A DNA stretch of 64,000 nt from a virus. Position numbers and translations under genes: made by a program. The notes under the pieces were generated by a model. The model had not been told where the DNA came from. It did no database searches and saw only the letters and a program-made list of their open reading frames with translations. Position 1 is the first letter of the stretch. Every line of letters starts with the position of its first letter. Location: the IMG/VR virus record IMGVR_UViG_3300034073_001700, positions 56,143-120,142 of that record. The stretch is one strand, 5' to 3'. This document shows, piece by piece, positions 2,435-29,412 of this stretch.

Positions 2435-2508
2435 GGAGCAGTAGCCAAGTTGGTCAAGGCCCCGAACTCATAATTCGGTTATCGTAGGTTCGAGTCCTAC
2501 CTGCTCTA
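2435..2508 (+). tRNA. tRNA with CAT anticodon (elongator Met or Ile2)
   Basis: Acceptor GGAGCAG/CTGCTCT; anticodon arm CCGAA-CTCATAA-TTCGG; T-loop TTCGAGT; no initiator hallmarks; CCA not encoded. Confidence 0.92.
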
Positions 2509-2528
2509 CAGTGATACAATAGAATAAT

Positions 2529-2601
2529 TGATCTGTAGTTCAGTTGGTAGAACACTCGACTGTTAATCGAGATGTCGCAGGATCGAGACCTGCCAGATCA
2601 G
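2529..2601 (+). tRNA. tRNA-Asn(GTT)
   Basis: Acceptor TGATCTG/CAGATCA; anticodon arm CTCGA-CTGTTAA-TCGAG; atypical T-loop ATCGAGA. Confidence 0.9.
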
Positions 2602-2605
2602 CGAA

Positions 2606-2679
2606 GGTCCGTTAGTTCAGTTGGTTAGAACGCTACCCTGTCACGGTAGAGGTCGTGAGTTCAAGTCTCATACGGATCG
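2606..2679 (+). tRNA. tRNA-Asp(GTC)
   Basis: Acceptor GGTCCGT/ACGGATC; anticodon arm CTACC-CTGTCAC-GGTAG; T-loop TTCAAGT. Confidence 0.93.
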
Positions 2680-2681
2680 CA

Positions 2682-2754
2682 GAGAAGGTAGGTGCTGTAT
2701 GTGTGCCAGGGAAAAGGGAAACACATGTATAGCAAGTTGCAACCCTACCTTCTC
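2682..2754 (+). ncRNA. unidentified 73-nt structured RNA between tRNA-Asp and tRNA-Glu
   Basis: Perfect 11-bp closing stem GAGAAGGTAGG/CCTACCTTCTC plus an inner stem TGCTGTATGTGT/ACACATGTATAGCA. Confidence 0.5.
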
Positions 2755-2762
2755 CCTATTTT

Positions 2763-2834
2763 GGCACTATCGTCTATCGGCTAGGACATCGCCCTTTCAC
2801 GGCGGAAAGACGGGTTCGATTCCCGTTAGTGCTA
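2763..2834 (+). tRNA. tRNA-Glu(TTC)
   Basis: Acceptor GGCACTA/TAGTGCT; anticodon arm TCGCC-CTTTCAC-GGCGG; T-loop TTCGATT. Confidence 0.93.
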
Positions 2835-2847
2835 CACTTTAAAGTTA

Positions 2848-2856
2848 TGGTATTAT
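2848..2856 (+). promoter_or_regulatory. extended -10 promoter, leaderless
   Basis: TGGTATTAT-N6-ATG(2863), no SD. Confidence 0.65.
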
Positions 2857-2862
2857 ATAGAG

Positions 2863-3546
2863 ATGGAAAAAATATATTTAGATGAAGACAAAAAGGTTTG
2901 GATTATTGAAAACTTCCTTACCGAAGAAGAACTAAAATGGTTTAAAGAGCAAACCGACGATGAAAATGGGTGGTACCCAACAATGAGGTCTCCATATAGA
3001 AATATATTAAATAAATTTTTAAATATCGTTCCAAGATATGACGACACTGGTAACATTATATTCCCAGATGAAAACTCTCAAGTATTACAACTAGAAATTT
3101 TTACTAAACCTGGCGGAATTTGGGATAGACTTGAATCTGTATTGCCACCAGTATATGGAAGACATGCTACATTACAATCTTTTAAGTATATGACAGATGA
3201 AGAAATAAAGGAAGCAGTAAACGATACATTATTAAGAGAATATAAGATTAAAGTTGAAGATATAGACTTTGCTATGTACTGGCATCAAGATCCAGATGAA
3301 GAGCAGAACATAATTTGTTCTTTTAGTCTTTACCTAAACGACGACTTTGAAGGTGGAGAATTGGAATTTGCAGAAGTTCCAATCAAACTAAAGCCAAAGG
3401 CTGGGACCTTGGCCGTAATACCTGGCGGACATAAGTATCGACATAGGGTAAATAAGGTGTTAGGCCCTAATTCACGTCATACCCTATATGGAAACTCTTT
3501 TATAGATGCTTCTAAGATACCTCAAAGCACAAAAGATGACTGCTAA
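2863..3546 (+). CDS. prolyl 4-hydroxylase-like 2OG-Fe(II) oxygenase
   Basis: IIENFLTEEE, WHQD, LYLNDDFEGGELEF, HRV...R motifs. Confidence 0.85.
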   Translation: MEKIYLDEDKKVWIIENFLTEEELKWFKEQTDDENGWYPTMRSPYRNILNKFLNIVPRYDDTGNIIFPDENSQVLQLEIFTKPGGIWDRLESVLPPVYGRHATLQSFKYMTDEEIKEAVNDTLLREYKIKVEDIDFAMYWHQDPDEEQNIICSFSLYLNDDFEGGELEFAEVPIKLKPKAGTLAVIPGGHKYRHRVNKVLGPNSRHTLYGNSFIDASKIPQSTKDDC

Positions 3547-3588
3547 AAGAGTGTTATAATAATCCCATAACCCCACAGGAGGTAATTG

Positions 3589-4404
3589 ATGAAATCAATT
3601 TACGATATCGAATTGGAATCAGCCGAAGGCGTTCCACACTTTATGCAACAGTTTAAGGGCAAAGCGATCATGCTTATCAACACAACAGTTGGTTGTGGAA
3701 ATGCTGGTCAAATGCAACCCATTCAATGGATACAGGAAGACCTTGCGGGAGAAGATTTCTCCGTTGTTGCAATCCCAACAAATGATTTCTGTGGCCCAAG
3801 CATTACAAAAGGCAAGTGGTCTAAAGGAATTGAAAAAGGTTTAGACTCAAAGAACTACGGAGAAGATGTATACGGAGTTACATTCCCATTCTCACAAATG
3901 ATTACATCTAATCCAGCAGAGATTCCATTAGAGGCTCCATGGCTTGGAAAAGGCCCAGGACTTAACGGAAATGGAGAGCCTTTTGGAGAAAGACACGAAC
4001 TTTATTTAGAAGTTTCAGAACAAATTAAAGCAATACAGTTAAAGAAAATAGAACTTGGTATTGTAGAAAGGACAGATTACGAATCACGTTATTTAAATGA
4101 ACACAACGGTGGCTTGTATATGAACTGTAACTTTGAAAAATATTTAATTGATAAGGACGGATATGTTGTTAAGCACTATCCTTGCACAACATTAAATTAT
4201 GATGTTGAAAAGACACTCAAAGAAGACCTTTTAGAAAAGGGAATTTTTGCAAAAATGGGTCCAGATAGATCCCCTTCTATTTTTGACGAAGAAAACAGAG
4301 TTATCCGTGACCACATTCAGCGTCTTATGAATGGAGAAAAATCAATTATTAATCCTAGTAATACGCTAACAGAAAAGTCTAAAGAACCACTGACAATCTC
4401 ATAA
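3589..4404 (+). CDS. divergent glutathione-peroxidase-family (BtuE-like) protein
   Basis: SIYDI, NTTVGCG, PTNDF, YGVTFP, NFEKYLIDKDG; GGAGG RBS; TGTTATAAT at 3552-3560. Confidence 0.8.
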   Translation: MKSIYDIELESAEGVPHFMQQFKGKAIMLINTTVGCGNAGQMQPIQWIQEDLAGEDFSVVAIPTNDFCGPSITKGKWSKGIEKGLDSKNYGEDVYGVTFPFSQMITSNPAEIPLEAPWLGKGPGLNGNGEPFGERHELYLEVSEQIKAIQLKKIELGIVERTDYESRYLNEHNGGLYMNCNFEKYLIDKDGYVVKHYPCTTLNYDVEKTLKEDLLEKGIFAKMGPDRSPSIFDEENRVIRDHIQRLMNGEKSIINPSNTLTEKSKEPLTIS

Positions 4405-4415
4405 AAATATAAACT

Positions 4416-4458
4416 ATTTTCTCCTATGGTATACTTAATATATAGCATAGGAGAAAAT
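4416..4458 (+). promoter_or_regulatory. 13-bp inverted repeat enclosing an extended -10 and covering the gpx RBS
   Basis: ATTTTCTCCTATG(4416-4428)/CATAGGAGAAAAT(4446-4458); TGGTATACT at 4427-4435. Confidence 0.7.
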
Positions 4459-4462
4459 TTTT

Positions 4463-4894
4463 ATGAGCATATATGATTTATCATTTACTGATAACAATAA
4501 AAATGTTATACAGTTAAAGAATTTTGAAGGAAAAAATATATTAATAGTCAACACTGCAAGTCATTGTGGAAATACCCCACAGTATGCAGATTTACAAAAA
4601 ATACAAAGTGATTCGTTGGTTGTTATTGGCTTTCCTTGCAACCAGTTTGGTAATCAGGAGCCAGGAACCAATGATGAAATTAAGGCTTTTTGTACAACTA
4701 ATTACGGTGTAACCTTCCCAGTGTCTGAAAAGGTAGAGGTTAATGGTCCTAACGCTCACCCTATATATAAGTACTGCAAAGAGGCTACTGGAGTAAGTAA
4801 TATTGGATGGAACTTTGAGAAGTTTTTAATATCTGCTGATGGGTCCATCTCTCATTATCCTACATCTTGCCCAGTATCTGATATAATAAAATAA
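4463..4894 (+). CDS. gpx: glutathione/thioredoxin peroxidase (Gpx family, Cys type)
   Basis: NTASHCG, GFPCNQFGNQEPG, WNFEKFLI. Confidence 0.93.
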   Translation: MSIYDLSFTDNNKNVIQLKNFEGKNILIVNTASHCGNTPQYADLQKIQSDSLVVIGFPCNQFGNQEPGTNDEIKAFCTTNYGVTFPVSEKVEVNGPNAHPIYKYCKEATGVSNIGWNFEKFLISADGSISHYPTSCPVSDIIK

Positions 4895-4915
4895 CTACTA
4901 GTAGAAAGAAGCATA

Positions 4916-7000
4916 ATGTCAGAAGCAAAATGCCCATTCACAGGCAATAGCCTAACAAACGAAGGAACATATAATAAGGATTGGTGGCCAAACCAGTTAG
5001 ATTTGTCTCCTTTAAGAAAAAATTCAGAAAAATCTGATCCTATGGGAGAAGACTTTGACTACGCTAAAGAGTTTAATAGTTTAGATCTTGATACTCTTAA
5101 GGCTGATATTGAGGAAGTTATGACTACCTCGCAAGATTGGTGGCCTGCCGATTACGGTAACTACGGCCCACTATTCATTCGTATGGCATGGCACTCTGCA
5201 GGTACATACAGAACAACTGATGGTCGTGGTGGCGCAGGAGAAGGCCTACATAGATTTGCTCCACAAAATTCATGGCCAGATAATGGTAATTTAGATAAGG
5301 CTCGAAGACTTCTTTGGCCTATTAAGAAGAAGTATGGAAAGAAGATTTCATGGGCAGACCTCATGATTCTTGCTGGTAACGTTGCTTTAGAAAACATGGG
5401 CTTTAAGACTTTCGGTTTTGGTGGAGGTCGTGAAGATGTTTGGGAAGCAGATGATACTTACTGGGGTAGTGAAAAGGAATGGCTTGCAGACAATCGCTAT
5501 AGCGGAGATCGTGAGTTAGAGAATCCTCTTGCTGCAGTTCAGATGGGTTTGATTTATGTAAACCCTGAGGGTCCAAATGGTAATCCAGATCCACTTCTAT
5601 CTGCTCGTGATATTCGTGAGACATTTGCTCGTATGGCAATGAACGATGAAGAGACTGTAGCACTTATTGCTGGAGGACATGCATTTGGTAAAGCACATGG
5701 TGCTGGAGATCCTAAGCATGTTGGTCCAGAACCAGAAGGTGCACCAATTGAAGAACAAGGTCTTGGATGGAAAAATTCATTTGGAAAGGGTAATGCAGAA
5801 GATACTATTACAAGTGGTATCGAAGGTGCATGGACTCCAACTCCAACAAAGTGGGATAACACCTACCTTAAACTATTATTTAAGTATGACTGGAAGCAGG
5901 TAAAGAGTCCTGCTGGTGCTACACAATGGATTCCCACAGATGAGTCTGCTGCTAATTTAGTTCCAGACGCACACGTTGAGGGTAAATTCCATGCTCCAGT
6001 TATGACAACTGCAGACTTAGCACTTAAGTTTGATCCAGAATATGAAAAGATTTCAAGACGATTCCTTGAAGACTTTGACTATTTCTCTGATCAATTTGCT
6101 CGTGCCTGGTTTAAGTTGACGCATAGAGATATGGGTCCAATTGCAAGGTATCTTGGTAAAGAGGTTCCTGTAGAAGAACTAATTTGGCAGGACCCAGTTC
6201 CTGTATCAATTACAAAGGATATTGATGTAGAGAGTATTAAGAATAGAATTAAATCTTCTGATATTCCTATGTATCATTTTGTCTATACGGCATGGGCTTC
6301 TGCGTCTACCTTCCGCAAAACAGATAAGCGTGGTGGTGCAAATGGCGCTCGTATACTACTTGAGCCACAGCGTAGTTGGGAAGTAAATGATAACTCAATA
6401 ATTTCTAGCGCTGTTGATTTCCTTAGCACGGTTCAAAAAGAACATATGATTTCTATGGCAGATTTAATTGTTCTTGCTGGATGTGCAGCAATCGAAAAGG
6501 CTTCTGGAGAAAGAGTTAAGGTTCCATTTACTCCTGGTCGTGGAGATGCAACTCAAGAGCAGACCGATGTTGAGTCTTTCAAAGTTCTTGAACCTATCGC
6601 AGATGGCTTTAGAAATTATTTAGGAAAAGGCACTACAGTTCCTTCAGAAATTTTGTTGGTAGAGAAGGCTAATATGCTAAATCTAACCCCAGTAGAGATG
6701 GTTGTTCTTCTTGCTGGAATGAGAACATTAGTGATTGATACACTAAATAATGGCTATCTGATTAGTCTTTTGTCTGGACAAATTTCTTGGAAGCAAACAT
6801 CTATTGATAATTTCCAAGGATATGTCAACGGAGAACTAGTTGGTAATGCAACTCGTGTTGATCTGATTACTGGATCAAACTCAGAACTCCGTGCTATTGC
6901 AGAGGTATATGCTTCTGACGATGCAAATGATAAGTTTGTGTCTGACTTTGCTAAAGCATGGAATAAGGTAATGATGCTTGATAGGTTTGATGTCAAGTAA
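4916..7000 (+). CDS. katG: catalase-peroxidase
   Basis: [71 protein letters not shown]. Confidence 0.97.
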
Positions 7001-7012
7001 TAAGTAGGGGTT

Positions 7013-7084
7013 GCCTCCTTAACTCAGGGGTAGAGTACCCGCCTTGTAAGCGGGTTGTCGTAGGTTCAAATCCTACAGGAGGCT
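7013..7084 (+). tRNA. tRNA-Thr(TGT)
   Basis: Acceptor GCCTCCT/AGGAGGC; anticodon arm CCCGC-CTTGTAA-GCGGG; T-loop TTCAAAT. Confidence 0.93.
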
Positions 7085-7100
7085 CTGATATAATTTAATT

Positions 7101-7283
7101 ATGGATTTAGAAAAAGAAATTAAAAATATATTATTTAATATAGGAAAAGATATACAGATCCATAAACTTATTGATGGCAACATGATTATTGAAATAGATT
7201 ATGACAAATACGTATCTGAAATTAAAAATCTAATAGATAATTATTTACTGGAAGATGGATTCCAGAATAAAGAATCATTGTAA
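7101..7283 (+). CDS. hypothetical protein (leaderless)
   Basis: TGATATAAT(7086-7094)-N6-ATG. Confidence 0.6.
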   Translation: MDLEKEIKNILFNIGKDIQIHKLIDGNMIIEIDYDKYVSEIKNLIDNYLLEDGFQNKESL

Positions 7284-7987
7284 TATATTTCTTTATCAAA
7301 CATAAAATGATTATAAATATAATCTTTTTCCTCTTGACTTAGTTTATTAAATAAAGATTCGGAGGCATAGTTTTTAAATGTTAGACTATCTGTTTCTCCT
7401 AAATTTATCTTTATATCTACGCCTAAGTCTGAAGATATTTTGTTGACTAGATCATAATAGTTCATATTTTTTAAATCTTTGTGCCTAAGCATCAAGTTAG
7501 TTCTTTTAATTCTTTTATATACTAATTCTTTATTTATTATAAAGTTATCTTTATGCTTCACCCTTGACTCATATATAGTATTGCCTATGCTTGGCTCTAA
7601 AATAAAGTTTTGTGATTGAAAATCTTTTAAGTAAGTAAACTCAGACAAAGCCTTATATATTTGATATTTCTCTATTTCTAGACTAGCGCCATTATGTTTT
7701 AGTATAAAGTTATTATTTTTATCTATTAGCCCAACTTCATCTGAAATCATATGTGCGAGGGCACTTATAAAAAATTCTACTGGATCTCTAAATATTGTAA
7801 TAACATATGTTTCATCATCTATATCTTTATACCAGCCACCATGCTTATGAATATTAGAAGGTAAACTAATAGTCTTAATATTGTTTTGTTCTAGTGTATT
7901 TTGTATTGGTTCTAGAATATATTTTGATAAGAACCTTCCGCCTGTTTTAGGTATGTGTAAAAAATATATCTTATTATACTTTTTCAC
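7241..7987 (-). CDS. sulfotransferase-family protein
   Basis: 5'-PSB-like FLHIPKTGG and FRDPV motifs. Confidence 0.7.
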   Translation of the reverse strand: MKKYNKIYFLHIPKTGGRFLSKYILEPIQNTLEQNNIKTISLPSNIHKHGGWYKDIDDETYVITIFRDPVEFFISALAHMISDEVGLIDKNNNFILKHNGASLEIEKYQIYKALSEFTYLKDFQSQNFILEPSIGNTIYESRVKHKDNFIINKELVYKRIKRTNLMLRHKDLKNMNYYDLVNKISSDLGVDIKINLGETDSLTFKNYASESLFNKLSQEEKDYIYNHFMFDKEIYYNDSLFWNPSSSK

Positions 7988-8127
7988 TATTTGGTCTTTT
8001 TGTTATACTCGCCGTATTTGCCTAACACTGCTTTAACCGTACCGTCTTTTCTTAGACGAACAACCATTCCATCTTTGATTTGAATTGGGTTAAACTTATC
8101 GTGTCTTTTATATTTGCCAGAAGACAT
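7987..8127 (-). CDS. small basic hypothetical protein (46 aa), absent from the ORF track
   Basis: MSSGKYKRHDKFNPIQIKDGMVVRLRKDGTVKAVLGKYGEYNKKTK*; fills the gap between its neighbours. Confidence 0.65.
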   Translation of the reverse strand: MSSGKYKRHDKFNPIQIKDGMVVRLRKDGTVKAVLGKYGEYNKKTK

Positions 8128-8926
8128 TACCGCTACCACGAACTTTCTTGCTTTGTTTTTCTATTGTATTAAAAGTATCAGAAAACAATGCCTTATCTTT
8201 TTCTGCATTCACGATACGACGTGACCAAGAATAGCCAGCATCCCCACCCCATGCTAACCACATTATGTACCCATTAGACGGATTTGATTGATTAGCCCAA
8301 TCCTTCCCCTTTTTATCAACTTCATGACGAGAAAAATAAGAGTACATTCTTTTAACAGTACTAAGAGAAAGTGATTCTCCTCTTGCTAACTGTCCTGCAC
8401 GAGTCCATCCTACTGATGTACCCGCACCTTTTGCCTTACCTTGTTCTTTAAATCTAATTGCTTTTCTTGCTGCAGCACGTGCTCCTGCTGGTGGAGAATA
8501 TCCGTCTGCTTTTGAAACAGAATCAGTTTCATAAACCACATCATCAGAATCTTCCCAAAGATCATCGGCCTTTTCTGCTGGAACACAATTAGGAACTGGT
8601 TTGCCATTTTCTCCTGGCTTCATTCCTCTTTGTACATATCCGTCCCAGCATGGTGCTTGTTTTTCAACACTACCACAACAATCTGATTTCATATCTCCAG
8701 ACTGGCACTGTGGACATTGGTCACAGGTTACATCTAATTCTTTACACATTGGACATCCACATCCCTCATATGCCTTGCCTACGTTGCCCTCAGAGCGGTT
8801 TATGGCATAGATCTGGGCTGCTGCCTGCTCTTTGGTTTCATGGCATCCCATAACCTCTCCTGTGTCCTTTAAAGCGGGGTATCCAGAACAACCCGATGAC
8901 CCCTTAGCACCTACATGATATGGCAT
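8108..8926 (-). CDS. modular Cys-rich phage protein, possibly head-associated
   Basis: GCH..K..A motif, Cys cluster, CWDGY...PNCVP motif, C-terminal RMYSYFSRHE...AWGGDAG domain; leaderless promoter. Confidence 0.7.
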   Translation of the reverse strand: MPYHVGAKGSSGCSGYPALKDTGEVMGCHETKEQAAAQIYAINRSEGNVGKAYEGCGCPMCKELDVTCDQCPQCQSGDMKSDCCGSVEKQAPCWDGYVQRGMKPGENGKPVPNCVPAEKADDLWEDSDDVVYETDSVSKADGYSPPAGARAAARKAIRFKEQGKAKGAGTSVGWTRAGQLARGESLSLSTVKRMYSYFSRHEVDKKGKDWANQSNPSNGYIMWLAWGGDAGYSWSRRIVNAEKDKALFSDTFNTIEKQSKKVRGSGNVFWQI

Positions 8927-8963
8927 AGAAATAGTATAGCATATATTATGGTAAAATGACTAT
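8927..8963. promoter_or_regulatory. back-to-back leaderless extended -10 promoters
   Basis: Minus strand TGCTATACT(8941-8933)-N6-ATG 8926; plus strand TGGTAAAAT(8949-8957)-N6-ATG 8964. Confidence 0.75.
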
Positions 8964-9143
8964 ATGAGTGAACAATTAACCCCAGAGCAGCATGCAGAAA
9001 TTATAGTTCATCAGATTATTCAGGCAACTAAAAATAAAATTATCAATATACTAGAGCCTCAATTTGATAAGATTTCTGGCGGACACCATCATTTTGATAA
9101 GGGTCTTGCTGACGCAATATTAGCAGATATTAGAAACGCATAA
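8964..9143 (+). CDS. hypothetical protein (59 aa), absent from the ORF track
   Basis: MSEQLTPEQHAEII...DIRNA*, with a leaderless promoter. Confidence 0.65.
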   Translation: MSEQLTPEQHAEIIVHQIIQATKNKIINILEPQFDKISGGHHHFDKGLADAILADIRNA

Positions 9144-9148
9144 TAAAA

Positions 9149-9175
9149 GAGCAGTTTGTCGTCATACTCAGGACG
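9149..9175 (-). ncRNA. compact H-type pseudoknot motif, copy 1 (3' of hsp20)
   Basis: CGTC-CT-GAGTA-T-GACG-ACAAAC-TGCTC followed by TTTTATT; preceded by hairpin 9176-9199. Confidence 0.65.
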
Positions 9176-9202
9176 GAGTTAAGTATCGATACCTAACTCA
9201 GT

Positions 9203-9622
9203 TTATTTAATTTTGATTGCTTTTGGCTTTTTTTCTTCTGGGATGTTTCTTTCCACAATAACGCTAAGAATACCGTCTGCCATTTCAGCACGATCAACCT
9301 CCATATACTCTCCTAGAGCAAAGGTGCGTGTGAACTTGCGAGTTGCGATACCCTTATGAAGTACATTTTCTGTACCCTCTTCGGTTTTCTCACCCTTGAC
9401 GATTAATCTTCCATTATCCACAGAAACCTCGACTTCGTCTTTGCTGAATCCAGCAACTGCAAAGCGATAAGCATAAGTGTCCTCATCAAGTTTTACCACA
9501 TCATATGGTGGATAGGATTGACGAGTTGCCTCACGATGGATATTTGAAAGACGGTCCAACTCACGGTTGAAACCAATAAAAATTGGATCGTTAAACAGAT
9601 CCAATGCAAATGAACTTACCAT
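9203..9622 (-). CDS. small heat shock protein (Hsp20/IbpA family)
   Basis: YPPYD, AVAGF, LHKGIATRKFTRTF, A.MADGILSV, IPEEKKPKAIKIK. Confidence 0.95.
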   Translation of the reverse strand: MVSSFALDLFNDPIFIGFNRELDRLSNIHREATRQSYPPYDVVKLDEDTYAYRFAVAGFSKDEVEVSVDNGRLIVKGEKTEEGTENVLHKGIATRKFTRTFALGEYMEVDRAEMADGILSVIVERNIPEEKKPKAIKIK

Positions 9623-9628
9623 TATTTC

Positions 9629-9675
9629 CTCCTTGTTAAGCGAGTCATTTTAAGTACCCCCCTTTGGGCAGGTAC
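9629..9675 (-). promoter_or_regulatory. ROSE-like RNA thermometer candidate in the hsp20 5' UTR
   Basis: Hairpin GTACCTGCCC-AAA-GGGGGGTAC, then CTC(G)CTT-AAC-AAGGAG pairing over the SD with a UCGCU motif; promoter TGCTATAAT at 9690-9682. Confidence 0.6.
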
Positions 9676-9682
9676 ATTTATA

Positions 9683-10492
9683 TTATAGCATATTATACAT
9701 AGATTCAGCAATATGTAATTGTCGGTGTAATCCCCAATGTCCTGGTGGCCAGTAGTCATAGTCTGCTGCATAGTTGAAAAATTTTTCATTAGCAAATTCC
9801 GAATGGCATGTTAGATGTGTTAAATCTATCTGATCTAAAAAAGACTTACTTTCAAAATATCCATCGCTAAATTGTTCTAGATTAAGCCTATCTATGCCAC
9901 TATAATCATATGCTGTCCATATAAATTTTATATTATTGATTTCGCAATATTGAATTAATATTTTTATAAATAAAATATTATAAAAAATTGCAAACTCTGG
10001 GGGGATTACATTTTCTATATCATGTGGTCCTTTAGAATATTTTAAAAGTTTGTGATCAGCAAGTATACCCTTCCCCATTCCATTAATATCAGAACTGAGA
10101 CCTGCCTTTAAATTAATTAATGGAGTTTCTAACCTTGGTAATGAAAAAACTGCAAATATATATTTGGGATGATAGAATTCTTTAAAAAATTGAAATGCTT
10201 TTATTACTTGAGCCTGAGCACCGTCTCCACCTTTTGCTAGATTAGCATAATCTTTATCCATTTTTTGTGACAATAAGTATGGCCAGGTTAAATGTATTGG
10301 CAATGCGTGGCCTTCTGTTTGAGAACATCCCAATACCAATATTTCCTGATTTTCAAATTCATTACACCTGTATCCATAAGAATTAAAGTTGTATTCTATT
10401 TCAACAGAGTCTGCTTCTTTTTTAAGAACACTATCACCCATATCTCTTAAGGATCTATTCAGAATTTTATTAAGAAGATTTGGGTTGGTCAT
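9683..10492 (-). CDS. SGNH/GDSL-like hydrolase or acyltransferase
   Basis: LGCSQTEG, NLAKGG, C-terminal D...GHWG...H. Confidence 0.6.
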   Translation of the reverse strand: MTNPNLLNKILNRSLRDMGDSVLKKEADSVEIEYNFNSYGYRCNEFENQEILVLGCSQTEGHALPIHLTWPYLLSQKMDKDYANLAKGGDGAQAQVIKAFQFFKEFYHPKYIFAVFSLPRLETPLINLKAGLSSDINGMGKGILADHKLLKYSKGPHDIENVIPPEFAIFYNILFIKILIQYCEINNIKFIWTAYDYSGIDRLNLEQFSDGYFESKSFLDQIDLTHLTCHSEFANEKFFNYAADYDYWPPGHWGLHRQLHIAESMYNML

Positions 10493-10496
10493 ATTA

Positions 10497-11918
10497 CTAT
10501 TTTATCACTTTAGTATTATAGGTTTCTTGCCATTTTAATATATCATTTTCATCATTTAACAACGGCTGTCCTTTAATATTTAAACTAGTATTTAGCAATA
10601 TTGGCACCCCTGTCATTGCATACCAATTAGAAAGAACATCATATAGCCCAGGGTGTTGATCTTTATTTACTGTCTGTACCCTTGAAGTACCGTCTTGATG
10701 AACAACAGATGGAATTAGTTCTGGCTTTAAACATTTTGGAGTATATTGCATATATGGGGAGGCATAGTTCATATCAAACCATTTGCCTGCATGCTCTTCC
10801 ATAATAACTGGAGCAAAAGGTCTAAACAATTCTCTTTTTTTAATTAAATTAACTTTATCCTTAATATTTGGATCTCTTGGATCTGCAAGAATAGATCTAT
10901 TTCCAAGCGCTCTTGGGCCATACTCTGCTCTTCCTGTTGCGACTGCAACAATTTTATCTCTAATTAAGCCAGTGATAATTTCTTTTACTGGATATTCCCC
11001 GCCCAAATCATATCCTAAGTATGGATGTTGCCAATTAACATGCTTGCCATATGCTGCTGTTGCTGCACCCAAAGATGAACCAGCGTCACCAGGATTAGGC
11101 ATAATCCAAACATCATCAAACATTCTCCAAAGCATTGTGTTGGCTGCACAGTTAAGGGCACAACCACCCATAAAAACAAGGTTGCGTTTACCTGTAAGTT
11201 TCTGCGCCATGGCCATAAAATTAACTAATCTTTCTTCGTATACCCTTTGAACAGCAGCAGCAATATCAAACTGTTCTCTATGCCCTATATGTTCATTCCA
11301 GTCTATGATTCCTTTATGAAAATTATATTTTTGTGTATTTATATCTGGAAAATATTCTTTTACTTTAAGATAATATCTTGTCCAATCTCCATAGGCTGCC
11401 ATCCCCATCATAATATATTCTTCTTGATTTGGCATAAGTCCTACCAACTGAGTGAAAGCAGAATAAAATAAGCCGAAACTAAATGGGTAATTCTTTTTGT
11501 ATACTTGCTTTATTGAAGAGCCCTCTCCAACCCAAATAGTAGAAGTATTGTATTCTCCAATAGCATCGAGAACCACTATAACAGCATCATTAAATTTACT
11601 TGTATAGTAGCCAGCACAAGCGTGAGAATAGTGGTGGCTAAAGTATTTTACTGGTAAGTCCATAGGAATATTTGGTTTCCAATCTGCCGCTCCACCTCTT
11701 AACATTATTCTAGATCTTTTAAGCCAAGGCTTTTCATAATATGCTATGACATTAGGTGTCCCATAGTTTAATGCATCTAGTATAATTTCTTTATTATTGT
11801 ACCAATCATTTTTTTCCTTACTATATCTTTCTGCATGACCAGCAAAAAGTATTTCTCCATCTTTAATTAAAGATACAGATGCGTCGTGCGAAGTTTCATT
11901 TATTCCAAGAATTATCAT
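10497..11918 (-). CDS. carbamoyltransferase (NodU/CmcH family)
   Basis: HDAS, HHYSHA, DAIGE, MGMAAYG, GGCALNC, PGDAG, EYGPRALGNRS, FRPFAP, LLNTSLN. Confidence 0.95.
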   Translation of the reverse strand: MIILGINETSHDASVSLIKDGEILFAGHAERYSKEKNDWYNNKEIILDALNYGTPNVIAYYEKPWLKRSRIMLRGGAADWKPNIPMDLPVKYFSHHYSHACAGYYTSKFNDAVIVVLDAIGEYNTSTIWVGEGSSIKQVYKKNYPFSFGLFYSAFTQLVGLMPNQEEYIMMGMAAYGDWTRYYLKVKEYFPDINTQKYNFHKGIIDWNEHIGHREQFDIAAAVQRVYEERLVNFMAMAQKLTGKRNLVFMGGCALNCAANTMLWRMFDDVWIMPNPGDAGSSLGAATAAYGKHVNWQHPYLGYDLGGEYPVKEIITGLIRDKIVAVATGRAEYGPRALGNRSILADPRDPNIKDKVNLIKKRELFRPFAPVIMEEHAGKWFDMNYASPYMQYTPKCLKPELIPSVVHQDGTSRVQTVNKDQHPGLYDVLSNWYAMTGVPILLNTSLNIKGQPLLNDENDILKWQETYNTKVIK

Positions 11919-11930
11919 AATAACTACACC

Positions 11931-12017
11931 CTAATATATAAAGGTGCCCTTATCCCTTTTTCTGAAAAATTTTTTAATTTTATGATAAGTTATATAAATA
12001 TAATATTTAAATTTCAT
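11931..12017 (-). CDS. small basic peptide (28 aa) upstream of the carbamoyltransferase
   Basis: AAGGAG RBS; MKFKYYIYITYHKIKKFFRKRDKGTFIY*. Confidence 0.55.
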   Translation of the reverse strand: MKFKYYIYITYHKIKKFFRKRDKGTFIY

Positions 12018-12029
12018 ATTATCTCCTTA

Positions 12030-12062
12030 AAATAAAACAGGGATGTTCATAAGAGCATCCCC
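12030..12062. terminator. hairpin / probable intrinsic terminator
   Basis: GGGATGTTC-ATAA-GAGCATCCC with T-rich tails on both strands; TGATAAAAT (-10-like) adjacent on the minus strand. Confidence 0.55.
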
Positions 12063-12079
12063 ATTTTATCATAATGACA

Positions 12080-12376
12080 CTAGGCCATTTGTGCAGGCTT
12101 TCCGCCTCCGCCAGACTTCTTCTTAGAAGCCTTTTTTTCTGCAGACTTTTTTGCTAACTTTTTAAGTTCTAAATCAGCAAGATTTGCCACCAAACCAAAC
12201 GCAGGGTCCTTTGGATTTACTGCCCTTATTGCTGGTCCTACTACTGCAATTAAACCTGCAATTAGTAAGCCGTCTATTCCAAGATCGCTATTGGCCTGAT
12301 ATGATTGTGCTACAGCAACACCGAACGATGCAATGTAGGTCTCTAGCACCTTCTTTTGCTTATCTTTAAGTTTCAT
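12080..12376 (-). CDS. holin-like membrane protein
   Basis: Hydrophobic segments, GPAIRAVNPKDPAFG, basic tail. Confidence 0.55.
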   Translation of the reverse strand: MKLKDKQKKVLETYIASFGVAVAQSYQANSDLGIDGLLIAGLIAVVGPAIRAVNPKDPAFGLVANLADLELKKLAKKSAEKKASKKKSGGGGKPAQMA

Positions 12377-12385
12377 TTTGTCCTC

Positions 12386-12553
12386 CTAGGATATGAACTT
12401 TGCTATGGCTACCCAAACTGGTTGAGCCAGCCATATACCCATTATACCAGCCACTCCAGCAAATACCTTAGGTGCTGGGAGCGGTAGTTTTAAGGATAAG
12501 CATATAAGGCCAAATCCTAGTCCAACAAGTAATGATATTAGTATATCTTTCAT
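12386..12553 (-). CDS. XapX/DUF1427-like small membrane protein (55 aa), absent from the ORF track
   Basis: MKDILISLLVGLGFGLICLSLKLPLPAPKVFAGVAGIMGIWLA. Confidence 0.7.
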   Translation of the reverse strand: MKDILISLLVGLGFGLICLSLKLPLPAPKVFAGVAGIMGIWLAQPVWVAIAKFIS

Positions 12554-12747
12554 TATTTTCCTTTCAAATTATCAGGATGATCCATTGGGGTTGGAATTGT
12601 TATCAAAGCCCCACATCTTGCACACTCACCGTCCAATAAATATAGTCCAATCTCATAGTCTGCAGGATCAATCTTTACAGCAACCTTTAAAAGGTCACAG
12701 TTGCATTCTGGACATACACAGGTCGGAATTCCTCTTGCGTCAATCAT
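12553..12747 (-). CDS. Zn-finger hypothetical protein
   Basis: CxCPEC...CARC. Confidence 0.7.
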   Translation of the reverse strand: MIDARGIPTCVCPECNCDLLKVAVKIDPADYEIGLYLLDGECARCGALITIPTPMDHPDNLKGK

Positions 12748-13108
12748 TTGGAATATCTTCTGGAAACATCTTTTCTAATTTTTCAAAGGCTGATCTAAAT
12801 CTTAATATAGATAGGTCGTTTGGGTAATTTAAGTCAAATTCAATTTCATGTTTATATTCAATCAATGCTTTGTGCAGGTCTTCTATATACTTAAAAGCAT
12901 CTTCTCTTGTTTGTGTTAGAAATGCTATAAGGTGTTCTTTTTCTACTAAGGCATCGCCATTAAATCCATCTCTTAACATTTCAACATCATCAATGGTTTT
13001 CTTTAAAAGCATAACTAGTTCTAAGTTTTTATTTTTTATTCGTACAAAGGCAATAGAAACCAATGATACTAAGCAAGCCACGAAAACAAATATACCAAAC
13101 TCAAGCAT
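12740..13108 (-). CDS. membrane-anchored hypothetical protein
   Basis: N-terminal TM after ATG 13108 (start revised from 13174). Confidence 0.65.
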   Translation of the reverse strand: MLEFGIFVFVACLVSLVSIAFVRIKNKNLELVMLLKKTIDDVEMLRDGFNGDALVEKEHLIAFLTQTREDAFKYIEDLHKALIEYKHEIEFDLNYPNDLSILRFRSAFEKLEKMFPEDIPND

Positions 13109-13598
13109 GGCGACTCTCATGTGTTGGCCAATAATATTTGCAGGGCTCTTTACGATCAGGGCAACATGGAACATTGTTGATACTTGTTACTGCATACTGA
13201 AATGGTGCATACAATATTGGATCTTTTTTGAATAAGTTGGCACGATGAGTAGTCACAATACGAAGCAACTTATTTTCATCTTGAAAATAGTCAGGCATAC
13301 TATTGCCCCAGTCATCCCAACACAAATCTTTTAAATTGTTTAGGTTTGCCTCATTGTTCTCAGTCTTGATGCCACGAGACTTGGCTTCAGCAATCATGGC
13401 TTGTACATAGTTCCAAAGACCACGCTCAAAACCTTTCCACATAAGTACTGCTGGATGATTACGCCAACCACCTGTAGGCGATTTGCCAGACAAAACATTT
13501 AGTATCTGGTAGCATTCTAAAATTTGTTTGTTGAGGCGCTTACTATCTAAAATAGCAGCAGACACACGATAATCTGACTGTGGCAGAAATGTTTGCAT
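13101..13598 (-). CDS. pyrimidine-dimer DNA glycosylase (DenV-like, MSMEG_6728 family)
   Basis: MQTFLP, LDSKRLNKQILE, GWRNHPAVLMW, HRANLFKKDP, YYWP. Confidence 0.88.
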   Translation of the reverse strand: MQTFLPQSDYRVSAAILDSKRLNKQILECYQILNVLSGKSPTGGWRNHPAVLMWKGFERGLWNYVQAMIAEAKSRGIKTENNEANLNNLKDLCWDDWGNSMPDYFQDENKLLRIVTTHRANLFKKDPILYAPFQYAVTSINNVPCCPDRKEPCKYYWPTHESRHA

Positions 13599-13610
13599 TA
13601 CGACACCCTT

Positions 13611-13895
13611 CTATATCCAGTACTTAAGTATAGCAGTTATGGCTAAAATTGTCCAGAGTATATTAAACCAAATTAGTGTGGGTATTGTTTTTACAGTAGA
13701 AGACCATATTAGCATTAGGCTTGAAGCGAGGGCAAAAATATAAAGCCACCACCATTGCTTATTAAATAATAGTCCTGGGATAATTATTACTGCCTTGGTC
13801 ACAAAAGCAAAAAATTCAACAATATTAGGTTTATTCCAGTAGGATTTATTGCCCATGGTTTTTAATGCATAAAGCCAATCTAATTTAAAATTCAT
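13611..13895 (-). CDS. small membrane protein
   Basis: Three hydrophobic segments. Confidence 0.65.
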   Translation of the reverse strand: MNFKLDWLYALKTMGNKSYWNKPNIVEFFAFVTKAVIIIPGLLFNKQWWWLYIFALASSLMLIWSSTVKTIPTLIWFNILWTILAITAILKYWI

Positions 13896-15435
13896 TTAAT
13901 TGCTCCAAAAATTTTCTATGCCCAATACATTCAAATTTTTTATAGTCTTGAACACTTGTAAAATAATCATAGTTATCACAAGCATCTTTATATTTTTGAG
14001 AATAGTTTATATATTTTTCAGCAAGACTCTTATTTATTTTATTAATTCCTAAACCAACAACGAGCCAACTATCAAATGACCAATATGTTCCACTATCATG
14101 TTTGTTTGGAAATCTCTCCTGCCACAAATCTATCTTATTTTTTAAACTGTCTGGCGCATTGTTATAAGAAAATTTTGACCAAAACTCTGTATCTTTTCTG
14201 TCTCCCATATAATGAAAATAAACAAACTCTGCTATATCATTATTCATTTTGACTACATCTTTATTAAATTCTTTTCTTAAATTATCTGTGTTGCCAAACA
14301 ACCACTCTGGATTAGAGAATAATCTTTTTAACATATTTATGCTCGCCCAAATAGAAGTAGCCTCTAATGGCTCTATAAAGTTTGATGCAAGACCTATTGC
14401 AACACAGTTATTAACCCAAGGAGTCTCATAACATCCAGCACTAAATTTAAATCCACCCTTATCTTTACGTGGATATGATGGCTCATACCCTAAATATTCT
14501 TCTATCTCTTGTACTGCTTCAGACTCTGATATCATAGATGAATCATATACATACCCGCATCCAAATCTAGACTGTAAAGGAATCTTCCACATCCAGCCAT
14601 ACTTCATTGCTATTGCCTCAGTATATGGGGGAATTTCTTCTGTCATCTCAATAAAAAATGGTAGTGCTGAATCTACTGGAAGGAAATCACTATAACTCTT
14701 CCACTCTGATTTAAATAGTTTGCCTATGATTAACCTATGAAATCCACTGCAATCAAATACAAAATCACATGGCTCCATACTTCCATCTTCAAATGAAACA
14801 CTTTGTATATTATCATTGTAGTCTAGTGATATATTATTAATTGTTTTTTCAATTATCTTTATACCACGATCTATACCTATTGACTTTAGCCTATCGGCAA
14901 ATTTAGAGGCGTTAAAATGTATGGAGTGGGACGCTAAATTATCATAATCTGAATTTAAATTTTTAGTATAGGAATTTTTATCAACGAAAGGAACCTTGTT
15001 ATCTTCTGAAATTTTTTCTATAAAGTCAACTGGTCCAAACTTATTGTTTTTTATAATGCTAGAAATTATAAGAGGATGGGTTAAAAGTCCAGCAGACCCC
15101 GCATCGAATCCTGCTGATGTAGATTGCTTTACCGAAAAGGCATGATAATAAAAATCACCATCGTTGTTCCAGTTAGTAAACTTAATTCCATTTTTAATAG
15201 TGGTATCACAGTGCTGTACTAGATCATGCAATGGTATATCTAAACTATTAAGAAAGTCTACTATTTGTGGGGTAGATCCTTCTCCTGCACCTAAAATGCC
15301 AATATCCTTAGACTCAACCAATGTAACATTAAGATCTGGATATATCTTGTTTATATATAGTGCGGTCAACCAACCAGCGCTACCGCCTCCAACTACCAAA
15401 ATATTTTTGATGCTAATCTTCTTTACCACCCTCAC
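13885..15435 (-). CDS. tryptophan-halogenase-like flavin-dependent halogenase
   Basis: GGGSAGW, GAGEGS, TIKNGIKF (catalytic Lys position), DCSGF, WMWKIP, FIEPLEATS; exact start uncertain. Confidence 0.88.
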   Translation of the reverse strand: MRVVKKISIKNILVVGGGSAGWLTALYINKIYPDLNVTLVESKDIGILGAGEGSTPQIVDFLNSLDIPLHDLVQHCDTTIKNGIKFTNWNNDGDFYYHAFSVKQSTSAGFDAGSAGLLTHPLIISSIIKNNKFGPVDFIEKISEDNKVPFVDKNSYTKNLNSDYDNLASHSIHFNASKFADRLKSIGIDRGIKIIEKTINNISLDYNDNIQSVSFEDGSMEPCDFVFDCSGFHRLIIGKLFKSEWKSYSDFLPVDSALPFFIEMTEEIPPYTEAIAMKYGWMWKIPLQSRFGCGYVYDSSMISESEAVQEIEEYLGYEPSYPRKDKGGFKFSAGCYETPWVNNCVAIGLASNFIEPLEATSIWASINMLKRLFSNPEWLFGNTDNLRKEFNKDVVKMNNDIAEFVYFHYMGDRKDTEFWSKFSYNNAPDSLKNKIDLWQERFPNKHDSGTYWSFDSWLVVGLGINKINKSLAEKYINYSQKYKDACDNYDYFTSVQDYKKFECIGHRKFLEQLNEF

Positions 15436-15655
15436 GAACTAGCAAAACTATTGCCCCATTATCCTCAAGAGCCTTTTTTACCCTTACCATATACTCTACA
15501 GCACGACGTTTGTCTGAGTCATGTAATGACATAAAGGATTTTTCCGATGCTTTAACAGTTAAAAAATGTTCATTGTCTATAATTTGTACCTGAAAACCAC
15601 TAGGACAAAAATGATCTAATGACCTAAAAGATTTACGCATACTATCTGTATACAT
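15413..15655 (-). CDS. hypothetical protein
   Basis: ORF tightly packed in the operon. Confidence 0.7.
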   Translation of the reverse strand: MYTDSMRKSFRSLDHFCPSGFQVQIIDNEHFLTVKASEKSFMSLHDSDKRRAVEYMVRVKKALEDNGAIVLLVREGGKED

Positions 15656-16215
15656 TATTTTTTTATTTCTACGTTCGGCATAATATCAATAAGTAGATGT
15701 ACCCTATCTATATTGCTATTATTTTTAACAAGATGATGTCTAGAATTATTTACTTCCCAACATTCTCCAGCCTTCATGTTAACTTCTTCATCTCCAACTC
15801 CAAAAAGAACTCCGTCTGAAGTTATAATTGGTATGTGATTTCTTCTAGAAAACATTAGGTAATCTCCAGAGTCATGATGTATGGGTATATCCTCGTTTGC
15901 TTTCAACTTAATTAACAAAACCATTCCCCTTACTCCGTCATGGATTCTTTCTAAATCTTTAACGATTGGCTCTACCAAATCTAACAGAGTTTGATCTTGA
16001 GACTTAGTTTCGACAATAAATTCTTCTCCGTCTTTCCAATAAAGGTTAGCCCTATTAATATAATAGGTAAAGGTTTGCTTATGTATCTTGGAGTTATCTT
16101 GTCTGGCAGTATCTATAAGCCATTCGTCAGAAAAATTTTCTACATACTTTCTGATTTTATCAACATTATATTCAGCAAGTTTTTTAAAATTAAAATTTTC
16201 TACTGTCTTTCTCAT
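15655..16215 (-). CDS. aspartyl/asparaginyl beta-hydroxylase-like 2OG oxygenase
   Basis: IPIHHD, RNHIPIIT, GECWEVNN..HH.V.N...DRVHLLID. Confidence 0.85.
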   Translation of the reverse strand: MRKTVENFNFKKLAEYNVDKIRKYVENFSDEWLIDTARQDNSKIHKQTFTYYINRANLYWKDGEEFIVETKSQDQTLLDLVEPIVKDLERIHDGVRGMVLLIKLKANEDIPIHHDSGDYLMFSRRNHIPIITSDGVLFGVGDEEVNMKAGECWEVNNSRHHLVKNNSNIDRVHLLIDIMPNVEIKK

Positions 16216-16796
16216 AGTACCTCCAATGACTTTTCAAACTCCAGGGGATATCCAAAATTATTAAAATCTTCAATGTATATATCCCTGGTCATTTGTATGG
16301 TTTGCTCCGTATAGTCTTCTTTATATGATTGTACCATATAATTACCTATGTTGTATTTACCCAAAGTCCATCCAAAATCACGCTCTAGTTCAACCAAATT
16401 TTCAAAATTATATAACTTAGTAACCTGAAGCATTTTTTGTTCAATAATATAAAAAGACTGAGACAGGTGTAGTAGTGGAGTTATCTGAGAAATTTTATTT
16501 TCCTGGATATTGGTAAGGTATTCTAGAAAAGATATATCAACCTGATTTGCTTTTTTATATTGACCAAAACAACTATAGGTTCTGGTGTATGGATTTCTAA
16601 CAACAGAAAAAGAAAATGTTTTATCATTAATGTCATTAACTTCTTTTAAATAAAAGTACGGGTCATGGTGTCTTGGCCAACCCCTTTTCCAATTATCTAA
16701 ATTATTTTCATTTAATATTTTAGATATAGACGATCCTGCAGTTTTTGGAATATGAACAAACAAAACTGAATCATATTCCTCATTTGCTATAATCAT
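16212..16796 (-). CDS. sulfotransferase family 2 protein
   Basis: FVHIPKTAGSSI, FSVVRNPYTR..S, Y..DF..FGY. Confidence 0.82.
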   Translation of the reverse strand: MIIANEEYDSVLFVHIPKTAGSSISKILNENNLDNWKRGWPRHHDPYFYLKEVNDINDKTFSFSVVRNPYTRTYSCFGQYKKANQVDISFLEYLTNIQENKISQITPLLHLSQSFYIIEQKMLQVTKLYNFENLVELERDFGWTLGKYNIGNYMVQSYKEDYTEQTIQMTRDIYIEDFNNFGYPLEFEKSLEVL

Positions 16797-16811: not shown

Positions 16812-17093
16812 TTAGTCTAATGTTAAATTTTGCCAAGCATTTGCCCAGTCCTGTGCAGTTTTGTGGTCGTTAAATTCTTTAGAAATAGAACCAGCATCCA
16901 AATAAATACCGCCCCACACTCCATATTCTTTGCTTGATACACCAACAGCAAAACATGTTTTTGCTACTGGACAATTTAAACAAAGTAGATCTATTGCTGG
17001 CCTAAGAGCAGACTCTTCTTCGTACTTATCAAAAAATAAATTAGTATCATAATCTAAACAAGATGCCTGATCTTTCCATTTAAGTTTGTGCAT
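16812..17093 (-). CDS. whiB: WhiB-family transcription factor
   Basis: W..QASC, FF, CLNCPV...C, GVWGG. Confidence 0.93.
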   Translation of the reverse strand: MHKLKWKDQASCLDYDTNLFFDKYEEESALRPAIDLLCLNCPVAKTCFAVGVSSKEYGVWGGIYLDAGSISKEFNDHKTAQDWANAWQNLTLD

Positions 17094-29060: not shown

Positions 29061-29412
29061 GGCCATACGCCTCCTGTCTTTGTAATTCTTTTGCTTTTGC
29101 AATCTTTAGCAAGACAAGGTATCCTATCAAATCATCTATATCATTATCACCTATGTACTCTGTGCCACGCATTATCCTGCTTAATTTATCATCAATCCGA
29201 ACATGTAGTTGTTCTCTTGGATCCGCTTTACTAAAAATACGAACAGGCTCTAATGCTGAGTTACCATATGCAATATTTTTTTTAATTAGCATATGTGCTA
29301 TTTCATGACAAGATTGATAAATTTCTTTACCAGCAGATGTTCCTACGGTTAATAGGTATAAGTCCTCACACTTAAAACGTTTCATATCTGGAAAAACTGG
29401 ATCTAGGCTCAT
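29050..29412 (-). CDS. DUF1599-like (nucleotide-modification-associated) protein
   Basis: KKNIAYGNS, RIDDKLSRI, DLIGYLVL. Confidence 0.7.
   Translation of the reverse strand: MSLDPVFPDMKRFKCEDLYLLTVGTSAGKEIYQSCHEIAHMLIKKNIAYGNSALEPVRIFSKADPREQLHVRIDDKLSRIMRGTEYIGDNDIDDLIGYLVLLKIAKAKELQRQEAYGHVD

Follow-up and report, generated by a model that had tools for sequence, protein, structure and literature searches.

Introduction

Catalase-peroxidase genes (katG) are already in print for viruses of freshwater actinobacteria. Passages of the 20-year Lake Mendota series (Zhou et al., 10.1101/2024.02.06.579183) place katG among the most abundant viral auxiliary metabolic genes (AMGs) and describe katG-containing viruses of Planktophila and Nanopelagicus, and passages of an estuary study report viral katG genes together with transcripts (PMC13390420). 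Here we analyse a 64,000-nucleotide stretch of DNA, hereafter the window, which comprises bases 56143-120142 of the IMG/VR virus record IMGVR_UViG_3300034073_001700 (120,142 bp). In this window, katG lies between tRNA genes together with two genes of the glutathione peroxidase (Gpx) family and one oxygenase gene. We conclude that the cluster belongs to the phage, as a genuine and long-resident auxiliary module of a tRNA-rich genome of ~120 kb.

The peroxide physiology of the acI freshwater actinobacteria has been revised in the meantime. The first-pass annotation of this DNA, made from its sequence, had taken as established that acI is sensitive to H2O2 and needs added catalase in culture. According to passages of a later work by the authors of that view (10.1101/2021.01.11.426183), the effect of catalase is due to haem, and acI is a haem auxotroph that is less sensitive to H2O2 than first reported; a katG-bearing acI strain nevertheless tolerated more H2O2 than a katG-less one. 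Passages of another paper state that the Nanopelagicales lack haem synthesis and that their KatGs fall into two groups, one of which lies near a tRNA and is thought to be horizontally acquired (PMC7527133). The same passages cite Kim et al. for an acI KatG with low or no catalase activity.

Results

Gene content of the cluster

The genes of the cluster and its borders are as follows.

2435..2835, + strand: tRNA array Met(cat), Asn(gtt), Asp(gtc), Glu(ttc), found by ARAGORN; upstream border of the cluster
2763-2835, + strand: tRNA-Glu (ARAGORN)
2863..3546, + strand: 2-oxoglutarate (2OG)-Fe(II) oxygenase, 227 amino acids (aa); PF13640 E 1.9e-8, phrog_61 E 3.2e-15
3586..4404, + strand: Gpx-like protein, 272 aa; PF00255 E 9.1e-9, 35.3 bits (cut-off 27), N-terminal part only
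4463..4894, + strand: Gpx, 143 aa; PF00255 E 4.7e-38, 129.5 bits (cut-off 27)
4916..7000, + strand: katG, catalase-peroxidase, 694 aa, compact form; NF011635 and TIGR00198
7013..7085, + strand: tRNA-Thr(tgt), found by ARAGORN; downstream border of the cluster

Open reading frame (ORF) calls, ARAGORN and the Pfam and NCBIfam models agree with the first-pass annotation that two Gpx-family genes and a 694-aa KatG lie between tRNA-Glu and tRNA-Thr. Its list of Gpx-like, Gpx and KatG genes is correct but omits a fourth gene, the oxygenase at 2863-3546. This oxygenase is the first gene of a 2OG/Gpx-like/Gpx trio. A homologue is present at 48 of the 80 viral katG loci, which are the relatives kept from 149 IMG/VR contigs and to which all counts of viral loci refer. 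The Gpx-like ORF begins with TTG followed directly by ATG, and the start is likely to be at 3589 because homologues begin MKSIYD.

KatG: residues, selection and shape

With 1113.5 bits for NF011635 and 997 bits for TIGR00198, the KatG of the cluster exceeds the curated cut-offs of these models, 981 and 770.25, respectively. Its residues 2-693 align end to end with residues 3-727 of B. pseudomallei KatG (5l05, E 1e-281), and PF00141 is matched in two stretches, in keeping with two fused class-I peroxidase domains. The distal R89/W92/H93, the adduct residues Y214/M242 and the proximal H255/W306/D367 are intact, as are D122/N123, the switch R404 and S300, the equivalent of S315 in the M. tuberculosis enzyme; the roles are those given in the KatG literature. 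The residue alignment bears out the first-pass claim that the distal R/W/H, the Met-Tyr-Trp adduct and the proximal His are preserved. All twelve residues checked are invariant in 81/81 viral sequences, and R89, W92, H93, H255, W306, D367, Y214, M242 and R404 are also invariant in 110/110 cellular rows. By family and residues, the phage KatG is an intact catalase-peroxidase, and the cluster is probably functional.

Viral katG is evidently under purifying selection. When the window katG is compared with each of its 80 viral homologues, the ratio of nonsynonymous to synonymous rates (dN/dS, Nei-Gojobori) is 0.134 at the median and at most 0.186. These values are rough, as synonymous sites approach saturation in many of the pairs (median proportion of synonymous differences 0.58).

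The viral proteins are shorter than the cellular ones, with median lengths of 687 aa and 731 aa, respectively. The basal viral branches still measure 721-730 aa (L026, L028) and 707 aa (L022), the window type of 693-696 aa has no 14-aa loop after residue 608, and the crown group of 678-695 aa has lost a further 19 aa. Another 8 aa near residue 511 are missing relative to cellular KatG. These deletions are confined to the haem-less C-terminal domain and spare the catalytic N-terminal domain, indicating that viral KatG has been trimmed stepwise in the former. In an AlphaFold2 (AF2) model built on a 26-row alignment, the C-terminal domain reaches a predicted local distance difference test score (pLDDT) of ~75-95, and the N-terminal domain is poor (mean pLDDT 67.4); this model was kept out of the fold search.

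Pfam scans that covered 108 ORFs of the genome detected no gene of haem synthesis, and the ORFs scanned gave no match to ahbD. The ORF at 427-984 carries the PHROG label 'ferrochelatase' (phrog_2954) and was rejected as a haem gene, its nearest named clusters and predicted-structure matches being 2OG-Fe(II) oxygenases. For a second candidate haem link, the ORF at 1213-2427, the Pfam scan and its follow-up gave nothing.

A KatG kept for a non-catalase role (another peroxidase or oxidase substrate, or haem binding), or one that is largely apo and inactive, would suit the outcome of these scans and the C-terminal domain that is smaller by ~30-50 residues. It would also suit the Nanopelagicales, which make no haem and among which one acI KatG has low or no catalase activity (Kim et al., in passages of PMC7527133). 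However, the catalase-specific Met-Tyr-Trp adduct and the switch Arg, which a peroxidase-only or haem-storage role would not need, are invariant in 81/81 sequences. In addition, purifying selection extends over the whole of katG, the deletions leave the catalytic domain untouched, and the shortened domain is still modelled at the pLDDT given above. We consider a KatG of this kind highly improbable.

A viral KatG clade

The KatG tree holds 191 rows, 81 viral (window included) and 110 cellular. In FastTree, the 81 viral KatGs make up one side of a branch with a Shimodaira-Hasegawa (SH)-like support of 100. A quick IQ-TREE run separated 23 viral representatives, of which no pair is >=88% identical, from the 40 nearest cellular rows, chosen by path, with an SH-like approximate likelihood ratio test (SH-aLRT) value of 99 and a joint branch of ~0.28 changes/site. 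Identity to the window KatG is 72.7-88.9% for the 80 viral proteins kept (BLAST) vs 57.6-66.5% for the cellular ones. Nearest to the viral clade are one actinobacterial genome and some Bacteroidota, the sister group being without firm placement. KatG is present in 118 of 401 evenly drawn Actinomycetota genomes (a tally that takes in one unpublished genome, G273, for the count only), with a best full-length identity of 67% (G200, G190). The trees place the viral KatGs in a single clade, distinct from all cellular KatGs sampled, and indicate a single old acquisition.

The best named cellular KatG matches, among those listed (600 candidate rows), are 58-67% identical and scattered over many phyla, on which ground an assignment of the host by KatG similarity was rejected. 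Partial matches of 77% (G122) and 71% (G384) were also set aside, being N-terminal fragments at contig ends; their contigs have a GC content of 56% and 50% and no other phage-like gene. The G200 locus has a GC content of 35.7% in a 1.6 Mb genome, but holds an ordinary 733-aa cellular KatG with no tRNA within 18 kb. As a separate observation, another Actinomycetota genome (G003:C12:40576-42338) has a second KatG-like stretch beside an intact katG, spread over several frames and with in-frame TGA stops, which looks like a decayed copy.

Among 50,697 deposited phage records, 7 gave KatG matches, all <60% identical, and several of these were named Salmonella strain contigs or were fragments of 1.6-3.4 kb. 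By comparison, 149 of the 151 pattern matches in IMG/VR encode a KatG relative, and the best 120 matches in a set of 5.8 billion proteins are 79-100% identical, on contigs of up to ~118 kb. The first-pass description of katG as an unusual phage cargo applies to the deposited records and fails for uncultured phages; it is also countered by the rank of katG among the most abundant lake-virus AMGs in the Lake Mendota passages.

Integrity of the phage record

IMG/VR classes the record as 100% complete with direct terminal repeats, and an exact 115-bp repeat is present at both of its ends; the overall GC content is 36.9%. The genome contains structural genes (portal, prohead protease, terminase, capsid and tail proteins) and genes of replication and metabolism (DnaE, DnaB, primase, a UvsX-like recombinase and class II ribonucleotide reductase), and virus genes flank the peroxidase cluster on both sides. 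Logan contigs from two other samples of what is probably the source study (X2 and X3) match 1-2461, 2806-5124, 6133-7000 and 7065-8074 with 0 differences. The depth in X2 is ~250-264 on backbone and cluster and 203.5 on the piece 7065-8074; that in X3 is ~599-671, equal on backbone and cluster. The read-coverage check for chimerism that the first-pass annotation had proposed gives, in these two samples, a flat depth across the cluster. A run from another study (X5) covers 3180-5008 with 10 differences. GC content at third codon positions is 0.263 for katG, close to the median of the phage ORFs (0.250, interquartile range 0.219-0.277), while the median for cellular katG is 0.783.

A host fragment misassembled into the phage, or a cellular island mis-called as viral, might be supposed from katG being otherwise a cellular gene and from the bacterial names that some near-identical proteins carry, those of metagenome-assembled genomes (MAGs). 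Furthermore, the flanking tRNAs are frequent sites of assembly breaks, and the Logan contigs do break at 2461-2806 and 7000-7065. However, the breaks in X2 and X3 are restricted to these tRNAs and to the conserved central part of katG, a stretch that relatives have in common. The MAG names cross unrelated phyla and belong to phage-sized contigs, the 149 viral contigs come from many data sets, and in relatives the neighbours of katG include the phage genes Hsp20, WhiB, terminase and SNase. Misassembly of a host fragment is very unlikely because the genome is complete with a terminal repeat, the depth is flat and the codon composition of katG is that of the phage; to this explanation as a whole we give an almost negligible probability.

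Five homologues with MAG names (P0059 and P0254, also P0041, P0276 and P0325) are 76-85% identical to the phage KatG or Gpx. The names include 'Candidatus Elulimicrobium humile', Bacteroidota, Alphaproteobacteria and Aphanizomenon flos-aquae WA102, the contigs are phage-sized, and the longest one listed has 36,934 bases for P0059 as well as for P0254. In all likelihood, the MAG names stem from phage contigs that were binned with bacterial genomes.

Embedding in tRNA genes and gene order

A tRNA gene on the same strand lies <=400 nt upstream of katG in 59 of the 80 viral loci, downstream in 25 and on both sides in 20; tRNA-Thr follows katG within this distance in 10. Embedding in a tRNA array is a trait of the viral KatG clade because the upstream tRNA recurs in so many of these loci. 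In the closest relatives (L002-L005 and L024, KatG 85-89% identical), tRNA-Asn, -Asp and -Glu are followed after ~43 nt by katG and then by tRNA-Thr, without the oxygenase/Gpx-like/Gpx trio. Contigs of the DNA run X5 and of the RNA library X20 connect 2835 straight to 4879/4882, exactly at the -10 motif of katG described below. Among the 80 viral loci, the complete trio and katG recur in this order only in L025 and L032 (KatG 76-77% identical), and 11 other loci have a short Gpx that follows katG at a distance of ~1.8-2.4 kb. The trio may have been inserted in this lineage or lost from its nearest relatives. In X2 and X3, a joint of 2835 to 7013 extends over only 30 letters to one side; it is used here only alongside L026, in which tRNA-Glu adjoins tRNA-Thr.

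In another group of katG phages, an HNH endonuclease with an N-terminal WhiB-like segment (L013 12887-13345, L030 13070-13549) is the next or next-but-one gene after katG.

Promoter-like motifs

The window contains 30 copies of the extended -10 motif TGNTATAMT where 9.65 +/- 3.07 would be expected. A count of 30 was reached by 0/100 shuffles, and 17 of the copies lie <=80 nt upstream of an ORF start on the same strand. A sigma-70 two-hexamer scan found 36 sites against 37.7 expected, not above chance. Three copies of the extended motif stand before the peroxidase genes.

3552..3560, + strand: extended -10 motif TGTTATAAT, ends 25 nt before the Gpx-like start
4427..4435, + strand: extended -10 motif TGGTATACT, ends 27 nt before the Gpx start
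4879..4887, + strand: extended -10 motif TGATATAAT, within the final part of the Gpx gene, ends 28 nt before the katG start

Because the motifs end at these distances from the three starts, Gpx-like, Gpx and KatG each look like a promoter-plus-gene module of their own. The TGATATAAT site is the point at which relatives join tRNA-Glu directly to katG. The first-pass remark that the cluster uses the same promoter style as other phage genes is supported by the enrichment and the spacing, and position 3552, where that annotation let the cluster begin, is the first base of the motif before the Gpx-like gene. The RNA run X20 gave no cover on the Gpx genes, from which no conclusion is taken.

The two Gpx proteins

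The 143-aa Gpx aligns over its full length with 6vpd and 3cmi (E 1e-37). The residues of the catalytic tetrad, Cys35, Gln (Q61/Q65), Trp116 and Asn117, are all present and invariant in 18/18 aligned members. A second Cys, C77 in 'KAFCTT', is also invariant in 18/18 and takes the alignment position of the 'AQFCQL' Cys of yeast Hyr1 (3cmi); presumably, it acts as the resolving Cys. The protein scores below the NCBIfam equivalog cut-offs (137 vs 270). Its residues fit the pattern of a thioredoxin-dependent 2-Cys GPx, as which we infer it to act.

The 272-aa Gpx-like protein carries a ~60-aa insert (about residues 108-170) and a C-terminal helix, and its sequence matches in the PDB fall into two pieces. 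Its AF2 model has a pLDDT of 82.3 and a predicted template modelling (TM) score of 0.84. In Foldseek, the best matches of this model are all GPx chains (GPX7/8 and S. aureus Gpx), with E values as low as 1e-10 and a target TM of 0.6-0.8, so that the protein, as modelled, has the GPx fold. The tetrad is incomplete: Cys37 and Asn182 are kept, whereas an invariant Asp67 stands in the place of Gln, and Cys, Ala or Gly in that of Trp (20/20 members), and a new Cys69 is invariant in 20/20 members of the family. Because of this incomplete tetrad, we file the protein as a GPx-fold protein and not as a glutathione peroxidase. Homologues number 275 at E <= 0.001 among 605 candidates, mostly on phage-size contigs; among the best 120 of the 275, no name of a cellular organism appears and the longest contig listed has 192,981 bases. 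The family seems to be a phage-specific thiol protein on the GPx fold, with probably related but non-identical redox chemistry.

Oxygenases around katG

H2O2 is known to attack mononuclear Fe(II) enzymes and is itself formed by flavoenzymes and by uncoupled oxygenases (Imlay laboratory). The genome encodes >=12 proteins of the Fe(II)/2OG-oxygenase type, along with a flavin halogenase and a luciferase-like monooxygenase. Nine PF13640 matches, one of them at 24.6 bits and under the cut-off of 27, are accompanied by TauD and an Asp/Arg hydroxylase, and for the ORF at 427-984 the predicted fold resembles that of a 2OG oxygenase. The flanks of 63 of the 80 viral katG loci hold one or more 2OG-like genes (180 merged matches), and in 22 loci such a gene shares the strand of katG and ends <=1.5 kb upstream of it; L013 has three 2OG oxygenases upstream of katG.

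With an oxygenase also opening the cluster, the peroxidases might mainly shield the oxygen-using enzymes of the phage itself, rather than the host from environmental peroxide. However, the association of 2OG genes with katG may merely reflect a common accessory, tRNA-rich region; the 0/80 found in the cellular control is biased, as the queries were phage proteins, and the counts cover katG-bearing loci. Such shielding is, moreover, compatible with the general peroxide defence that we favour below. As the main function of the peroxidases we regard it as unlikely. We are equally doubtful of its wider form, in which a phage lineage captured katG once and the streamlined copy, with thiol peroxidases of its own, would mainly shield an exceptionally large complement of iron- and flavin-dependent phage oxygenases in a haem-auxotrophic host and would not be a defence against lake peroxide.

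Genes of the 2OG type are located at 427-984, 2863-3546 and 15655-16215 of the window and at 9282-15446, 28523-29125 and 51146-53222 of G000:C1. A run of accessory enzymes occupies 7241-16796 on the minus strand. It includes two sulfotransferase-like proteins, a Nol-type carbamoyltransferase (10497-11918), a pyrimidine-dimer glycosylase (13101-13598), a tryptophan-halogenase-like flavoenzyme (13885-15435) and the Asp/Arg hydroxylase.

Host and neighbouring genes

Two further genes of the window recur around viral katG.

9203..9622, - strand: Hsp20, PF00011 E 7e-20; near katG in 43 of the 80 viral loci
16812..17093, - strand: WhiB-like regulator, PF02467 E 7.8e-12, a host marker; in 31 of the 80 viral loci

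The DnaE of the phage is 52-55% identical over 99-100% of its length to those of tRNA-rich Streptomyces phages of ~121-134 kb (~55% with BillNye and Ankus), and the major capsid protein is 40-42% identical to Streptomyces-phage capsids. Because of the WhiB gene and this kinship in DnaE and capsid, the host is probably an actinobacterium, and we assign no genus. The actinobacterial part of the first-pass proposal is upheld by these data; an assignment to acI does not follow from them. In a comparison of five small actinobacterial genomes with the phage DNA, similarity was confined to katG and tRNAs (66-81%).

The UV glycosylase and the Hsp20 that had been named alongside the cluster are both present in the window. 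Relatives of hsp20 (9203-9680) reach a depth of ~490-800 in an aquatic RNA library in which the neighbouring genes are at or near zero, which hints at strong transcription of the phage hsp20. Elsewhere in the window, at 48073-57795 on the minus strand, a single 3,240-aa ORF adjoins a 1,428-aa minor-tail-like protein.

Discussion

We favour, as probable, the reading that the cluster is a resident peroxide-defence module of an actinobacterial phage, and the peroxide-scavenging auxiliary role put forward in the first-pass annotation is the most economical account of the data. In the infected cell, the phage would make a cytoplasmic KatG that removes H2O2 and would take its haem from the host, because no haem-synthesis gene was found in the phage. 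The 143-aa Gpx would draw on host thioredoxin, in keeping with a host that lacks glutathione, to reduce organic hydroperoxides as well as H2O2, and the Gpx-like protein would probably perform related redox chemistry on a rebuilt site. Together they would hold peroxide low, so that replication and the iron and flavin enzymes of the phage keep working.

Several points weigh against this peroxide-defence reading. If the host is one of the Nanopelagicales, which make no haem according to the passages cited above, the phage KatG may be haem-limited, and a review table marks viral katG 'Not validated' (PMC12713726). Support from RNA is weak: the katG contigs come from one RNA library (X20), are 90-95% alike at a depth of 2.6-5, derive from relatives and may reflect carry-over of DNA. 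The thioredoxin dependence of Gpx is predicted from its residue pattern and from the biochemistry of 2-Cys GPx enzymes, and the selection ratios are rough, as noted with them. A closer cellular KatG could exist beyond the sample of 600 candidate rows and 401 genomes. The KatG phylogeny against acI and other hosts, which had been suggested as a check, did yield a viral clade separate from the cellular rows, but these rows contain no named Nanopelagicales KatGs. Finally, the 'sunlit water' of the first-pass proposal finds no counterpart in the labels of the five runs that hold 0.69-0.98 of the sampled words, which are subsurface (3), soil (1) and marine (1) metagenomes and not lake surface, and the present results lend no support to the grazer oxidative bursts that it also named. 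Runs with a freshwater label (X6-X19) have small shares of 0.09-0.19, and no conclusion on the habitat is taken from them.

The present data do not overturn current views. Although katG ranks with the most abundant auxiliary genes that lake viruses carry, a review lists it as unvalidated (PMC12713726), and this genome with its 80 related loci supplies material for a test. It offers an intact compact enzyme for expression, natural KatG variants that run stepwise from 730 to 678 aa, and loci with and without the 2OG/Gpx-like/Gpx trio. If the hosts are haem auxotrophs, the source of haem for the phage enzyme becomes a concrete question. The altered GPx-fold family, with its 275 homologues, is a small and tractable unknown.

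Comparison with known systems

The Lake Mendota katG resembles the present gene in its location in viruses and in the reading as H2O2 decomposition, and is described in the passages as persistent and abundant. Those passages give no phylogeny, residues, tRNA embedding or Gpx partners for katG, and 'gpx' and 'peroxidase' have 0 occurrences in the main text (10.1101/2024.02.06.579183). They link katG with a viral ahbD for haem, to which the ORFs scanned in the present genome gave no match. Our literature search for viral katG found no reports beyond the lake, estuary and review papers, and none of a phage-encoded glutathione peroxidase as an AMG. It likewise found no description of a private compact KatG clade, of katG in a tRNA array or of Gpx partners, including the altered GPx-fold family. 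Relative to what has been published, the structure and compaction of the KatG clade, its embedding among tRNA genes and its Gpx partners count as incremental advances.

The Streptomyces phages BillNye, Ankus, Circinus, Wakanda, Jay2Jay and others are like the present phage in size, DnaE, capsid and WhiB. At the DNA level, however, the only match of window positions 1-25000 in the phage collection is a 55-base stretch of a tRNA gene, and Streptomyces phages of that group are absent from its 7 KatG matches.

With the cellular hydroperoxidase I (HPI) enzymes of B. pseudomallei (5l05) and M. tuberculosis (2cca), the phage KatG shares the two-domain architecture and all catalytic, adduct and proximal residues. 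It differs in having 694 aa instead of 728-740 aa, in its missing C-terminal loops and in its low-GC codons. The 143-aa Gpx has the Cys, Gln, Trp and Asn and the 'FC' Cys in common with the thioredoxin-dependent Cys-GPx enzymes Hyr1/Gpx3 (3cmi) and poplar Gpx5 (2p5q), and is shorter than the solved GPx enzymes of 158-192 aa. The 272-aa Gpx-like protein shares its modelled fold with GPX7/GPX8 (2p31, 3kij, 3cyn) and S. aureus Gpx (9kzm), and departs from them in the altered tetrad, Cys69, the ~60-aa insert and the C-terminal extension.

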